Below the pieces are notes generated by a model. That model searched no databases, was not told the origin of the DNA, and was given only the letters and a program-made list of their open reading frames with translations. A program made the translations under genes and the position numbers. Below are positions 2,885 through 61,348 of a stretch of 64,000 nt of DNA, in pieces. Position 1 is the first letter of the stretch; every line of letters begins with the position of its first letter. Source of the stretch: a phage; the sequence record PZ171032.1; one strand, 5' to 3'.

Positions 2885-3265
2885 CTAAAATGCAGTCCGA
2901 ATCCAGACAAGGTTCTTATCTGCCCAATCATAGAGGCAAGTCATTGCACTATTGAATTGCTCACACGGAGGATAATCTTCTTCCATCTGGCGCATAGCAG
3001 AGCCTTGTGGGTAAAGCTCCCGTGCTGCAAACCACGCGTCGTAGTCATCAACGGTGTCGAAGTAGTATACAACATCCTCTAACTCAGGATCGAACTTTGA
3101 ACTATCAGGATCCAGTTGTTCAGGGAACTTGGAGCGTAACTTGCCAGCTACAATACTTGCCAACTCGCTAACATGCTTATTGTCCCACTCCACTAGCTTC
3201 CCGTCTTCAGTGATGCGTCCTAACCACTGATCATGAAGGTCAACTGTTGTCTTCCACTGGGCCAT
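2885..3265 (-). CDS. hypothetical protein
   Basis: 126-aa ORF in same operon; acidic. Confidence 0.5.
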   Translation of the reverse strand: MAQWKTTVDLHDQWLGRITEDGKLVEWDNKHVSELASIVAGKLRSKFPEQLDPDSSKFDPELEDVVYYFDTVDDYDAWFAARELYPQGSAMRQMEEDYPPCEQFNSAMTCLYDWADKNLVWIRTAF

Positions 3266-3267
3266 TA

Positions 3268-3525
3268 TCAGTCCACCTCTTCTTCTCGTTGTAGTTCAAG
3301 ATACCCGTAGGTCTGGACATCTTCAAGGGTGTGGAACTCCCCATCTGCCGCTAATGCACGAACAACTTGGCACAAAACCTTATGAGGAACTTCATCCAGA
3401 CCAAGATTCAGTGCAGGGAACACCTTATCTAAGTCAACAAAATAAATGAACTGTAGCTCACCAGCTTCAAAAGGTGTATCTTCAATAAACATCTTCTCGG
3501 CATTAGTCAAGATCTGCACTTTCAT
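3268..3525 (-). CDS. hypothetical protein
   Basis: 85-aa ORF, tightly packed with neighbours. Confidence 0.45.
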   Translation of the reverse strand: MKVQILTNAEKMFIEDTPFEAGELQFIYFVDLDKVFPALNLGLDEVPHKVLCQVVRALAADGEFHTLEDVQTYGYLELQREEEVD

Positions 3526-3881
3526 TATTCTACCTCCTCTTCTTTTTCTTCGGCATTAGTTTCATGGCTACCCCACTCCGGAGTTTCCACCTCGATAGTA
3601 AACTCACGCACTACACGGTAATTGCCCATGAAGCGCTCTACTTCGTCAAGGCTTATGGAGAGGCCATTGGCAACCAGGTCTGCAGCACCCTCTTCTACCA
3701 GGTAGTCCAGATTGGCTTCCAGAGCCTCAGGTTCAAACCCTGTCAATGCAATCAGATAACCTTCCCCTTCATCAGGGAGGACAATACAGCCCAATTGATT
3801 TTCTTTAAAAAGGCAGTGACCATCATTATTGATTGGGTGTTCATTGCAGTAAATAGCTGCACGATAAGTAACTTTAGACAT
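3525..3881 (-). CDS. hypothetical acidic protein (start refined to MSKVTYRAA)
   Basis: ORF track 3525..3902; the internal ATG at 3881 is preceded by AAGGAGACC RBS, and the 29-bp initiation segment is repeated in gene 5212..6189. Confidence 0.5.
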   Translation of the reverse strand: MSKVTYRAAIYCNEHPINNDGHCLFKENQLGCIVLPDEGEGYLIALTGFEPEALEANLDYLVEEGAADLVANGLSISLDEVERFMGNYRVVREFTIEVETPEWGSHETNAEEKEEEVE

Positions 3882-3894
3882 CGGTAAGGTCTCC

Positions 3895-4173
3895 TTAGGC
3901 AATTGTCATTTTACATTCTTGAAATTTTAACACAAGACGGTGATTGTGTCTAGTGTCTAAAAAGATTTTTTCAACCATCAGGCACACGGTATAACCGTCC
4001 ATCTTGTTGACAACAAAATCTCCAGGATGAGGGAGGATGTCTCCCGGATTGGGGAAACATAGTCCACTCAGAAAGGCATCGTCAGTGGTGGACTTAATAG
4101 ATTTCCACACACTGTCTGCCTGAACATGTTCACCGACGTAATATACATTACCACATGCCTTCATCATAGTCAA
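3895..4173 (-). CDS. hypothetical protein
   Basis: 92-aa ORF. Confidence 0.45.
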   Translation of the reverse strand: MTMMKACGNVYYVGEHVQADSVWKSIKSTTDDAFLSGLCFPNPGDILPHPGDFVVNKMDGYTVCLMVEKIFLDTRHNHRLVLKFQECKMTIA

Positions 4174-56977: not shown

Positions 56978-57077
56978 AAGCTTTACCCCTCAAAACAGTA
57001 TAACAAAATAGCCCTCGTCAGAGGGCTAGTATCTCCAATTACTTTATTGTACCACATCTAATTAAGATTGGCAACAC

Positions 57078-58166
57078 TTAGATAAAACGCTTGAACATAG
57101 AAGGTGATGAGATTGATGGAATCACACAAGGAAGTGCTACCTCCTCTTTCTCCAGGAAATTAATCGCAGAAGCTACACAGTCGGCCCAGTCGTCTTTTCT
57201 GTTAAATGTTGATCTTTCCCCGTTGAATTTTTCAAGTTCAGTCAGAAATGCTTCCAGAGTATCAGGATGGAAACTGGATTTTACAATCCTCACCATCCCT
57301 TGTTGGGCAAGATTGGCAAAAGGTGAGAACCTTGTCAGTTTAGATTTGTTGGAAGGCATTGGGTCTTCTTCAACCCTAAACCCTTCGGCGAGCAAGGATC
57401 TGGAGGAGGTTAAGAACTCACTCTTACCTGCCTGACCGGGGTCCACAGAGAATACGATTATACAATCATCACCATCAAACTGCGCCTGTTTCCTGATGAT
57501 CACATCTCGTTCACCAGCCTTTTTACAGAACTTACCTTCCAGACCTGTGGAATACCTCCCGTCATCCACGTTCTCAGGACAATAATCACCGGACAGGTAA
57601 TAAAAGCCGTCGCTATCTTTACTTACCTTAACACTGGCGGTAAAGTCAGGAAATTTATTACCGGAAGTTCTCTCGGTTCCTGCCTTATCCCATGCCCTAC
57701 AAGATACTGATCCAAGGGGTACTCTATCGGCATCACGAAGGAAAGATCTTTGAAAATAGTTTGCACCCTCAGGCTTTGCAAACCAGTTACCATGGAGAAG
57801 CTGAGCTTTTTCCAGCTCTGGTAGACCTTCGAGGAAAGCAAGGTATTCTGGGTTGTCTCTCAAACAGACAGGATTATCGAATATTGTTGCGCCTATGAAC
57901 GAGAATGACAACGGTCTTGGCTTGATCTCTACGCCAAGTCCGTTAACCGTGGTGTATTTCTCTATCAACTCTTCTTTAGAATCTCCCCAGATAAATTCAC
58001 CGTCGCGTCGGATAAAATATCTTTTCTTACCGCATTTCTCCGGGTCTGGATACCCTTCATCGTCCAACCACCATCTAACCAGTTTGGCAAGCATGTGCTC
58101 TGAATCGGGGTTACAGCTGATAACCATTCTTGATGGATACTTTGACTGAGATCGCAGACGAGACAT
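57078..58166 (-). CDS. terL: terminase large subunit, exon 2 (C-terminal nuclease domain)
   Basis: Begins RMVISCNP (coupling-motif-like) and has Asp-rich RNase H-like nuclease region; frame open upstream of first Met back to about 58195, so the true exon boundary precedes the annotated Met. Confidence 0.7.
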   Translation of the reverse strand: MSRLRSQSKYPSRMVISCNPDSEHMLAKLVRWWLDDEGYPDPEKCGKKRYFIRRDGEFIWGDSKEELIEKYTTVNGLGVEIKPRPLSFSFIGATIFDNPVCLRDNPEYLAFLEGLPELEKAQLLHGNWFAKPEGANYFQRSFLRDADRVPLGSVSCRAWDKAGTERTSGNKFPDFTASVKVSKDSDGFYYLSGDYCPENVDDGRYSTGLEGKFCKKAGERDVIIRKQAQFDGDDCIIVFSVDPGQAGKSEFLTSSRSLLAEGFRVEEDPMPSNKSKLTRFSPFANLAQQGMVRIVKSSFHPDTLEAFLTELEKFNGERSTFNRKDDWADCVASAINFLEKEEVALPCVIPSISSPSMFKRFI

Positions 58167-58169
58167 CAG

Positions 58170-59084
58170 GTAGTCTATCTGCTCCCATTCGAACTGTGTC
58201 GTTTATGTTCGGGCAAGGTCGCTAGTCTTGCCCCGCCATTTTCAGGCAGCTGCATGTCTCCATGCAGACCAGACTATATCTTATGAATGTGCAAATACTC
58301 TGCCGCTCTAAGAATAGTTTCCTCATCCTCTTGGAAGAAACCTAAAGCTCTGTTGCATTTATCACAAAGCAACCCTCTTACAGCACCAGTTTTATGGTCA
58401 TGATCAACACAAAAGAAATCTCTGTACCCTTGCGTCCTATACTCATCAAGAGATATTCTACAAATGGCACACTTATGATCTTGATCTGAGAGTAGACGAT
58501 AGTATTCATCTTTTGTTATGTGAAATTTCTTCTCAATCTGATAAAACTTTTCACACATCTTACACCTGTTCGTAACCAGATATACTTTACCATAGTCACG
58601 TTTTGTGTAAAAACTATCAGCGAGCATACTTTCATGACAAGATTTGCATTCAAAAAGTTCACCTTTCTTCAGCAAGTCTTGAATAAATAATGCTGCGTCA
58701 TCTCTCTTAACCATATTTTTGTTTCTACGAGATCCACCCTTCCTGTAGTACATATAGCATTCCTTGCATGTACCTGAGTATCCATCCTTGCTCTTAGATG
58801 ATAAAAAGAAATCATCAATAGGTAGAACTCTTTGGCAATCCATACATTTTTTAGTATTACACATTCACCCTCCCGTTTCGAATCGCTTGATTCTACGTCT
58901 TTCGACTAGTCGTTGAACGTTCATCCTCTCGGATGCTTCGCTGCGGATTATCTAAATTAACACACTGTTACCATACCTTCGATCTCTCTTCGAAGCCTCT
59001 GTCATGTTACCATGACAGGTTGGTGGTGTCAATAATAAAGATTTCCCCGCAATTAGGGAGGTTTTACGAGAGCTACAAATTAAC
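58170..59084 (-). mobile_element. group I intron interrupting terminase large subunit gene (approximate bounds)
   Basis: In-frame stop right after Walker B (FDEG*) at 59080; about 0.9 kb gap with free-standing HNH ORF; candidate P7 strands GACUAGUC (plus 58904-58911) and UAGUCUGG (plus 58269-58276) in transcript orientation; P9-like hairpin GCATG-GAGA-CATGC. Confidence 0.6.
58274..58864 (-). CDS. intron-encoded HNH (endonuclease VII-like) homing endonuclease
   Basis: 196 aa; C-terminal CAICRISLDEY...CVDHDHKTGAVRGLLCDKCNRALG closely parallels recalled T4 endonuclease VII core (CLICQ...DHDH...VRGLLCNLCNAAEG); N-terminal CxxC zinc-finger pairs; GGGAGGG RBS. Confidence 0.7.
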   Translation of the reverse strand: MCNTKKCMDCQRVLPIDDFFLSSKSKDGYSGTCKECYMYYRKGGSRRNKNMVKRDDAALFIQDLLKKGELFECKSCHESMLADSFYTKRDYGKVYLVTNRCKMCEKFYQIEKKFHITKDEYYRLLSDQDHKCAICRISLDEYRTQGYRDFFCVDHDHKTGAVRGLLCDKCNRALGFFQEDEETILRAAEYLHIHKI

Positions 59085-59508
59085 CCTCATCGAAGCAAAC
59101 CATGGTGTACTCAAGCCCCTGATGGTTAAGCTTATCTTGTACATACTCCATGTGGCAGTATTTTACAACAGCTCCCTTTTTGCTTCTATCCCACTTACCA
59201 GTGTTCGGATCAAACCGTGGAAAAATGAACTTATGATCCTTCTCTCTGAACTTTGGCTTAATGTTTTCAGGCAGATCACTATAAATAGCTACTGCTTTAG
59301 GCCATAGTCCACCCTCACCTTCCAACTGTGGGGTTGTTCTTCGGAACATAACCACAGAGCTGTGGGGGTCATCAATAATTTTAAGTGGCATCAACTGCAA
59401 GAGGAACGACTTGCCAGACCCTGCGGCACCGCCGATTACCAAAATATCTGCATCGTTTTCTAGGATCATCTTCTGCTTTTCAGAACACGGTCCGTAAATC
59501 TTAGACAT
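59080..59508 (-). CDS. terL: terminase large subunit, exon 1 (N-terminal ATPase domain)
   Basis: Walker A VIGGAAGSGKS, Walker B YTMVCFDEG; ends at stop inside intron. Confidence 0.7.
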   Translation of the reverse strand: MSKIYGPCSEKQKMILENDADILVIGGAAGSGKSFLLQLMPLKIIDDPHSSVVMFRRTTPQLEGEGGLWPKAVAIYSDLPENIKPKFREKDHKFIFPRFDPNTGKWDRSKKGAVVKYCHMEYVQDKLNHQGLEYTMVCFDEG

Positions 59509-59795
59509 TAACCTCTCTCCTTTGGAAACAGTGTTCTAATATAGTCTTGCAAAATGATCAATTTAGCTCTATCATTGCTACAAGACAGATTATTATCCCT
59601 CATAATGCCAGAATTCACTGCATCTGGCGCACCTTTCTTCAAAGGCATAGCTTTAGCAGGTGGTTTCATGGCACCTTCCGGGGGTTTAACAATCAACCTT
59701 CCTACATCCGGAGGGTCAATCTTGTATTCTCTCTCAACGCTGGTTGCACACCCACATAATAACAAGCACACAATAAACAGTGTAGCAACTCTCAT
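59508..59795 (-). CDS. o-spanin (Rz1-like outer-membrane lipoprotein)
   Basis: 95 aa; signal plus lipobox-like LLLCGC; Pro-rich mature region. Confidence 0.6.
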   Translation of the reverse strand: MRVATLFIVCLLLCGCATSVEREYKIDPPDVGRLIVKPPEGAMKPPAKAMPLKKGAPDAVNSGIMRDNNLSCSNDRAKLIILQDYIRTLFPKERG

Positions 59796-60190
59796 CTACC
59801 CTCCTGATTAATACTCTCATTATAAATATCTATAAGCTGATCAGGGAGTGTTGACTTCTTACCCTCAGGTGACTGGAGGTAAATAATCTGCTTTTCTTTA
59901 CCTGCCTTCTCAGCCATATTTAATTTATCCTGTAGATCAGAAAGGGATTTTTCAAGGTTTTTAACCTCCTCTGCGTGGCCCATTTTAATTTTGTCGGCCT
60001 GCTTTTGTTGCTGATCAAGGATCCGTTCCCACTTTAACTCTGTTGCTGACACACCTTCTTGGTAGGCATCATTAAGCTTAGAGTTAAACCAATACACGGC
60101 CCCAAGATAAGCTGTACCTATCGCAGCTGCAAAAACTAAACCTTTTATGATCCCTCTATACCTGCTCAGCCATGTTAAAACTGAAATCAT
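59792..60190 (-). CDS. i-spanin (Rz-like)
   Basis: 132 aa; N-terminal TM helix LVFAAAIGTAYLGAVYWF then charged coiled-coil; stop overlaps o-spanin start. Confidence 0.6.
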   Translation of the reverse strand: MISVLTWLSRYRGIIKGLVFAAAIGTAYLGAVYWFNSKLNDAYQEGVSATELKWERILDQQQKQADKIKMGHAEEVKNLEKSLSDLQDKLNMAEKAGKEKQIIYLQSPEGKKSTLPDQLIDIYNESINQEGR

Positions 60191-60851: not shown

Positions 60852-60858
60852 AAAAAGG

Positions 60859-60955
60859 TGCTAGGTGATGGAATCGAACCACCTATGTATTCAACGACTA
60901 CCTCGTCTATTTTCAGGATTAAAAATCCTCGCCCTTGCCAAAGGGCTTACCTAGC
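60859..60955 (-). tRNA. atypical tRNA-like element (about 97 nt; anticodon loop UUUUUAA, so Lys-UUU if functional; possible pseudo-tRNA)
   Basis: Good acceptor (GCTAGGT/ACCTAGC) and T-arm (GGTGG-TTCGATT-CCATC) but about 30-nt variable region with internal hairpin and no encoded CCA. Confidence 0.35.
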
Positions 60956-61260: not shown

Positions 61261-61348
61261 TGGTGGTGAGTGATGGAGTCGAACCACCCGAATCGCAATT
61301 ATAACAGATTTACAGTCTGCCCCGCTACCCCTACGGAATTAACTCACC
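61261..61348 (-). tRNA. tRNA-Tyr (anticodon GUA), long variable arm, irregular D-region
   Basis: Anticodon arm CAGACUGUAAAUCUG matches recalled E. coli tRNA-Tyr; acceptor GGTGAGT/ACTCACC, T-arm GGTGG-TTCGACT-CCATC, CCA encoded; D-arm pairing non-canonical. Confidence 0.55.

Follow-up and report, generated by a model that had tools for sequence, protein, structure and literature searches.

The large terminase subunit gene (terL) of a Vequintavirus, an rV5-like coliphage, is very probably interrupted by a mobile, td-like group I intron carrying a homing endonuclease of the Endonuclease VII (Endo VII) type. The gene lies in a stretch of 64,000 nucleotides (nt) from sequence record PZ171032.1, which was analysed as a whole and is called the window here; all positions are those of the window unless another record is named. 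The 2.6 kb around terL are 99.3% identical to Escherichia phage DrSchubert and show 95-99% identity to many other Vequintavirus coliphages. The anatomy of the intron, the exact restoration of the reading frame upon its removal and its presence or absence among near-identical genomes were observed directly.

Exon structure of terL

Two open reading frames (ORFs) encode the two parts of the terminase. An original prediction, made from the nucleotide sequence of the window, had described an N-terminal ATPase ORF with a Walker A motif that stops right after Walker B, and a C-terminal ORF with an ISCNP motif whose frame is open upstream of its first Met. Both were found as described. The prediction had placed the intron at 58170-59084; the interval was corrected to 59082..58200, with intronless alleles and the aligned 3' end of the T4 td intron serving to fix its limits. 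The terL locus reads as follows:

59508..59080, minus strand: N-terminal ORF, 142 amino acids (aa), with GGAAGSGKS; ends ...MVCFDEG, followed by TAA
58166..57078, minus strand: C-terminal ORF, 362 aa, with ISCNP; frame open upstream to 58202
59508-59083, minus strand: terL exon 1, 142 codons, with Walker A GGAAGSGKS and Walker B ...MVCFDE; ends GGT
59082-58200, minus strand: group I intron, 883 nt, td-like, with subgroup IA features
58199-57078, minus strand: terL exon 2, 373 codons and stop; begins ACA CAG (TQFEWEQ...)

Exon 2 contributes the remainder of the ATPase domain and the RNaseH-like nuclease domain. Each ORF matches one half of the Pfam family Terminase_6N, the N-terminal ORF at profile positions 2-104 and the C-terminal ORF at 111-211; the latter ORF also matches Terminase_6C. 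Excision of 59082-58200 yields a TerL protein of 515 aa with the junction ...MVCFDEG/TQFEWEQIDYL... (here and below, a slash within a sequence marks the splice junction). After this in silico splicing the two separate Terminase_6N matches of 25.6 and 31.7 bits become a single continuous match of 72.2 bits over residues 25-294, and Terminase_6C matches residues 394-489 with 27.9 bits. Comparison of the spliced TerL with PDB sequences gave no match at E <= 0.01.

Phage nom has an uninterrupted TerL with which the spliced protein is collinear, one residue (V vs I) being different. The nom gene has 1548 nt, and the window aligns to it in two blocks, nt 1-425 (99.1% identity) and nt 427-1548 (98.1%). 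A continuous terL, joined exactly at the predicted junction, is carried by about 66 near-identical phages, which bears out the expectation of the original prediction for intronless homologs. Judged from these alignments, the two terL ORFs are one gene, interrupted one codon after the Asp-Glu of Walker B.

It is very improbable that terL is naturally split, with fragments of 142 aa and 362 aa translated separately and assembling without splicing, and with the insert being a free-standing endonuclease gene. In favour of this, many GenBank records list the terL pieces as separate genes, and an ATG in frame with the C-terminal ORF is present at 58166. A start at this ATG, however, loses the residues TQFEWEQIDYL, which are kept in the uninterrupted TerL of nom and have a similar counterpart (TQFDWGQLEYM) in Pectobacterium phage CB7, and there is no Shine-Dalgarno sequence at usable distance before 58166. 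Moreover, a complete group I ribozyme encloses the endonuclease ORF, and in other phages an ORF-less allele of 319 nt interrupts terL likewise without any endonuclease gene.

Anatomy of the ribozyme

The group I core that the original prediction had expected on the minus strand was recovered by a search with the Rfam model Intron_gpI (RF00028), which matches 59092-58250 of the minus strand over the full model (1-253) with 48.2 bits and an E-value of 7.5e-11 in a scan of 57900-59300. The candidate P7 strands and the P9-like hairpin of that prediction were borne out as well, the pairing GACUA with UAGUC falling within the two strings it had named. A further group I intron was not detected within the window at E <= 0.001 (Rfam scan). 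The intron begins with UAAUUUG, the UAA of which doubles as the stop codon of the exon 1 ORF, and ends with ...GAACAUAAACG, its terminal G lying at 58200. The following elements were assigned:

59088-59081 with 59075-59068, minus strand: P1, exon GAGGGU and intron UA with the internal guide UAGCUCUC
59077-59075 with 58199-58197, minus strand: possible P10 of 3 base pairs, UGU of the P1 loop with ACA, the first bases of exon 2
59061-59056 with 58874-58869, minus strand: P3, CCUCCC with GGGAGG
59051-59046 with 58947-58942, minus strand: P4, UGCGGG with UCCGCA
59042-58950, minus strand: P5 and extension hairpins
58935-58922, minus strand: P6a
58911-58907 with 58276-58272, minus strand: P7, GACUA with UAGUC; J6/7 precedes the 5' strand
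58906-58897, minus strand: P7.1, GUC-GAAA-GAC
58893-58880, minus strand: P7.2, GAAUC-AAGC-GAUUC
58866-58860 with 58291-58285, minus strand: P8 stem, GAAUGUG with CACAUUC; its 568-nt loop holds the endonuclease ORF
58282-58200, minus strand: 3' domain of the ribozyme, including J8/7 (AAGAUA)
58267-58250, minus strand: P9, CUGCAUG-GAGA-CAUGCAG
58247-58235, minus strand: P9.1
58233-58211, minus strand: P9.2

The final U of exon 1 is the U of the 5' splice site, and P1 places a U.G wobble exactly at the exon-intron boundary. Thus the features of a group I intron are present: U at -1 within a U.G pair of P1, a terminal G, the potential to form P10 and restoration of the host gene upon removal. The last 80 nt, comprising the domain from P7 to P9.2, are 82% identical to the T4 td intron, with which they align base for base through the 3' splice site (...GAACAUAAACG/ACA vs ...GAACAUAAUG/CUA). 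In P9, P9.1 and P9.2, changes in both strands that preserve pairing were seen by eye, with no formal count, across the introns of td, CB7, phiAGATE, PA7 and a second terL site of some Vequintaviruses; one example is GGCAAG with CUUGCC vs GGUAAG with CUUAUC. Thermodynamic folding of the ORF-less allele recovers P1, P3, P4, P5, P6a, P7.2, P9, P9.1 and P9.2, at a free energy of -114 kcal/mol as compared to -86 +/- 4.7 for shuffled sequences (z = -6.1).

By its sequence, with P7.1 and P7.2 present and with homology to T4 td, the intron is classified as td-like and of subgroup IA. We do not assert assignment to IA2, since P2 is absent. The T4 td intron (IA2, with I-TevI) shares with it the homologous 3' splice site, P7.1/P7.2, the location in an essential or nucleotide/DNA-metabolism gene of a phage and the possession of a homing endonuclease. 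It differs in its host gene and in its ORF, which lies upstream of P7 and encodes a GIY-YIG enzyme, whereas the ORF of the window lies in P8 and is of the Endo VII type, in an intron without P2.

Ribozyme 3' domains of the td-like kind, with 77-83% identity, were also seen in Pseudomonas phage PA7 (L015 1503-1586) and Bacillus phage phiAGATE (L012 2337-2577). The former copy lies between two ORFs for the RNA polymerase beta-subunit of phiKZ-like Pseudomonas phages, with no annotation beneath the match; the latter lies in terL of the Bacillus phage.

The bare fact that a gene is interrupted would also suit an intein, a group II intron or a transposon that inactivates the gene, and nothing more speaks for these. 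Their probability is negligible. The stop codon directly after exon 1 and an endonuclease in a separate frame context argue against an intein, no Rfam family other than Intron_gpI matches the insert at a significant E-value, and carriers form plaques, so that the essential terL is not inactivated. All three are effectively refuted by the Rfam match, the collinearity with nom TerL and the ORF-less allele.

The endonuclease, the intron alleles and the proposed homing

The gap between the two terL ORFs holds a further ORF, in which the original prediction had recognised an endonuclease VII/HNH core:

58864-58274, minus strand: endonuclease ORF, 196 aa, in the P8 loop; contains ...CVDHDHKTGAVRGLLCDKCN...

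This core was confirmed by Pfam, which assigns the ORF to Endonuclease_7 (PF02945) with an E-value of 2.1e-21 and 76 bits, the cut-off being 23.6. The protein consists of two N-terminal CxxC...CxxC zinc ribbons followed by a C-terminal Endonuclease VII core (CxxC, DHDH, CxxCN). Three Cys4 sites are formed by C7/C10/C33/C36, C73/C76/C101/C104 and C132/C135/C167/C170. The residues C132-x2-C135, D154-H-D-H157, C167-x2-C170 and N171 align with residues 8-68 of T4 Endo VII, and herein DHDH and N align with its catalytic residues. All top PHROG matches are "endonuclease VII" families. Among solved structures the best sequence matches are Hpy99I (PDB 3fc3; E 9.6e-6 over residues 57-192) and T4 endonuclease VII (E 5.6e-4), and the DHDH and CxxCN motifs align with both. 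By family, as far as these matches tell, the inserted ORF is an Endonuclease VII or His-Me-finger nuclease.

Three alleles are found at the insertion site. About 120 Vequintavirus records match the junction region, with exons 92-99% identical, and the intronless phages mentioned above belong to them. With the ORF-less intron as query, the 883-nt intron containing the ORF was found in 30 records and the 319-nt form without it in 23. A synthetic query of the spliced junction (600 nt) matches 89 records at a single place, in one or two blast pieces, with 92-99% identity. The ORF-less allele occupies the identical site and is present in the type phage rV5 (L010 2501-2819) and in RudolfGeigy (L004 1109-1427). 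The two intron forms differ solely in P8, where a cassette of 582 nt (58866-58285) with its own stem GAAUGUG...CACAUUC takes the place of an 18-nt hairpin segment, AAGCGGUUGUUGUCGCUU. This difference suggests invasion of a previously present intron by an endonuclease gene. Only 30 records hold a copy of the endonuclease at 95% amino-acid identity or more, which equals the number of records with the ORF-containing intron. All other relatives are below 60% identity and mostly are free-standing endonuclease VII genes, including F-CphI of cyanophage S-PM2.

The bases next to the insertion site distinguish the alleles. At 59083 (-1) and 58197 (+3), both synonymous, 6 of 6 intron-bearing alleles read GGT/ACA and 6 of 6 intronless alleles GGC/ACG. 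With n=12, the pattern fits co-conversion during homing.

From these findings a mechanism may be proposed. The transcribed intron would fold as a standard ribozyme with P1 and its U.G at the 5' splice site, a P3-P9 core and P7.1/P7.2. Self-excision initiated by guanosine would join GGU/ACA and give one mRNA for the 515-aa TerL. By analogy with other intron-encoded enzymes, the 196-aa endonuclease would cut the intronless terL of relatives infecting the same cell, close to where the intron inserts. Repair templated by the intron-bearing copy would then spread the intron along with the two synonymous bases beside it. For splicing, cleavage and homing alike, we draw on the established biology of group I introns and their homing. 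As to splicing, the phages with the 883-nt allele are plaque-forming isolates and terL is essential for packaging; the intron therefore has to be taken out of the RNA.

Several points weigh against this reading. The Intron_gpI score of the window itself lies 1.8 bits under the curated Rfam cut-off of 50 bits, and at the gathering threshold Rfam reports tRNAs alone for the whole window and not the intron. We attribute the shortfall to the P8 loop, into which a very long stretch is inserted; the ORF-less allele, whose ribozyme parts are 98-99% identical to those of the window, scores 84.0 bits in RudolfGeigy and 84.9 bits in rV5. No P2 helix is seen in the Intron_gpI alignment of the window's intron. 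Its splicing rests on sequence anatomy and on the viability of isolates carrying the allele. Activity and target site of the endonuclease are predictions from sequence. Lastly, the split into GGT/ACA and GGC/ACG among the 12 alleles could reflect splicing requirements, the U at -1 being needed for the P1 wobble, or shared ancestry rather than co-conversion.

For the endonuclease, an alternative is that the intron splices but its enzyme no longer homes, being an inert passenger or having been kept for a different task, for instance to help splicing or to cut the DNA of competitors; ordinary recombination and loss would in that case account for the patchy distribution. We consider this unlikely. 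It agrees with the predicted status of endonuclease cleavage and with the persistence of the ORF-less form in 23 records, by which the endonuclease is dispensable for splicing or intron maintenance. Moreover, the examined intronless alleles all differ at the two bases beside the insertion site, and GGC/ACG may possibly mark targets resistant to the enzyme. On the other hand, the ORF is intact with at least 95% protein identity in 30 of 30 carriers, the catalytic DHDH...N and all three Cys4 sites are conserved, and proteins with the Endo VII motif constitute an experimentally established family of homing endonucleases (F-CphI, PMC6083498). An active homing endonuclease is thus the reading we prefer.

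The signals for translation of the endonuclease overlap with the ribozyme. The original prediction had credited the endonuclease with a strong ribosome-binding site of its own. A GGGAGG Shine-Dalgarno sequence indeed lies 4 nt upstream of the ATG; it is not separate, however, since it also forms the 3' strand of P3. The ATG lies within the 5' strand of P8 and the stop codon UAG within the 3' strand of P7. Given this arrangement, any one RNA should either be translated into the endonuclease or fold as the ribozyme, but not both. A bolder and rather doubtful proposal is that the overlap acts as a genuine switch, where ribosomes unfold P8, J8/7 and P7 and thereby block splicing while the folded ribozyme hides the ribosome-binding site, and that the 582-nt cassette in P8 records a recent invasion of the pre-existing intron by the endonuclease gene.

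A sigma-70-like match is found at 59004-59032 on the minus strand (TTGACA-17-TAACAT, with a TG upstream), within the P5 extension of the intron and upstream of the endonuclease ORF. A transcript begun there would lack the 5' strand of P3 and so leave the ribosome-binding site of the endonuclease free. We did not take this site (59032-59004) as evidence, as the ORF-less allele has the motif too and the scan was not above chance: the promoter/terminator scan of 57000-59900 returned 10 promoter-like sites vs 5.2 +/- 2.5 expected.

Known relatives, neighbouring observations and significance

The element is already known, having been described and annotated in near-identical phages. The original prediction held that the insertion site and its combination with this endonuclease deserved documentation; this exists in the rV5 genome paper, in the BASEL records and in the paper on F-CphI. 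The rV5 genome paper (Kropinski et al. 2013, PMC3606486) contains a section "Introns in terminase", reports terL in three segments, one of them with a homing endonuclease, and thanks D. Shub for the definition of the intron. The rV5 record DQ832317 annotates terL as a three-part join. BASEL records (DrSchubert, MaxBurger, WalterGehring, HeinrichReichert) give a joined terL coding sequence and a "putative homing endonuclease", the intron boundaries stemming from comparative annotation (PMC8594841). In the 2018 paper by which the homing endonuclease family with the Endo VII motif was established (PMC6083498), a protein of "Escherichia phage 2 JES-2013" is listed as intron-encoded. This phage is JES2013 (KC690136), and the ribozyme parts of its intron, which lies between the same terL pieces, are 99.0% identical to those of the window. 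In the literature searched there was neither direct evidence for splicing of this intron nor a biochemical characterisation of its endonuclease.

JES2013, DrSchubert, MaxBurger, nomo, APECc02 and others, 30 records altogether, carry an 883-nt intron 98.3-99.9% identical to that of the window and the same 196-aa endonuclease, with no substantive difference. The terL intron of rV5/V5 belongs to the same genus, gene and insertion site (after codon 142, GGT/ACA), and its ribozyme is 98% identical over 319 nt. Unlike the intron of the window, the rV5 intron at codon 142 has a short P8 hairpin and no ORF. The homing endonuclease of rV5 (ORF65) is of an unrelated HNH type and resides in a second intron near codon 247. 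This second intron (at nom nt 740/744) is absent from the window but present in some relatives:

L002 2716-3697: second terL intron of HdK5
L010 about 3150-4110: second terL intron of rV5
L004 1742-2012: second terL intron of RudolfGeigy

It occurs either without an ORF (about 271 nt, Rfam 95.6 bits) or as a form of about 982 nt that encodes an HNH endonuclease of 228 aa from another family (PHROG 59).

Outside the genus, a parallel is CB7, a Certrevirus of the Vequintavirinae, whose terL intron splices as determined by reverse transcription PCR (PMC7344957). CB7 and the window share an orthologous TerL, a related td-like ribozyme, similar P9-P9.2 and insertion within the Walker B motif. The CB7 intron is inserted two codons upstream (VD/EGTQF vs DEG/TQF), and its endonuclease is encoded upstream of P7 and not in P8. 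Comparison of the two endonucleases revealed no similarity; thus two terL introns of the subfamily carry unrelated enzymes. Introns in terL have also been documented in Bastillevirinae (PMC11878797).

As to the enzyme, F-CphI, an experimentally shown homing endonuclease (PMC6083498), belongs to the same catalytic motif family, with 30.6% identity over residues 73-191 (tblastn). F-CphI is free-standing beside the intron-containing psbA ('collaborative homing'), whereas the enzyme of the window is intron-encoded and has two extra N-terminal zinc ribbons. Hpy99I (PMC2699513) combines a repeat of Cys4 zinc ribbons with an Endo VII-like beta-beta-alpha-metal core, as does the enzyme of the window. 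Unlike the latter, Hpy99I is not intron-encoded; it is a bacterial restriction enzyme of type II with a partner methylase.

Some observations concern the neighbourhood of terL and the records compared. The o-spanin gene upstream of terL is mislabelled 'putative large terminase subunit' in phage nomo (L003 806-1093) and similar records. Across terL, at least 18 'Campylobacter phage' records (MG0656xx, e.g. MG065654 and MG065674; host given as Campylobacter jejuni) show 95-99% identity to Vequintaviruses of E. coli, and their host label looks doubtful. Two genes of the tRNA cluster in the window are also worth recording:

60857-60955, minus strand: tRNA-like gene of 99 nt; 'tRNA-???' with a 4-base anticodon by ARAGORN, 35.5 bits with the Rfam tRNA model
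61264-61348, minus strand: tRNA by Rfam (39 bits), missed by ARAGORN

The former folds into a cloverleaf whose variable arm is long and whose anticodon stem-loop (GGAUUUUUAAUCC) is odd. A 98-nt 'tRNA-OTHER' beside trnT in phage nom is probably its counterpart, and it is unannotated in rV5. By cluster order, the latter appears to be the trnY of the rV5 record.

Beyond correct annotation the significance is small: an essential phage gene here harbours a textbook case of a mobile group I intron. Most of the 30 carrier records split terL into two or three genes and name the endonuclease "recombination endonuclease VII"; the present coordinates and junction permit a joined annotation. If the switch proposed above were true, the intron would set the timing or amount of TerL and hence DNA packaging. 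With three natural alleles at one site, ORF-containing, ORF-less and intronless, these easily grown E. coli phages would offer a convenient system for studying homing by the little-studied family of Endo VII-motif endonucleases.

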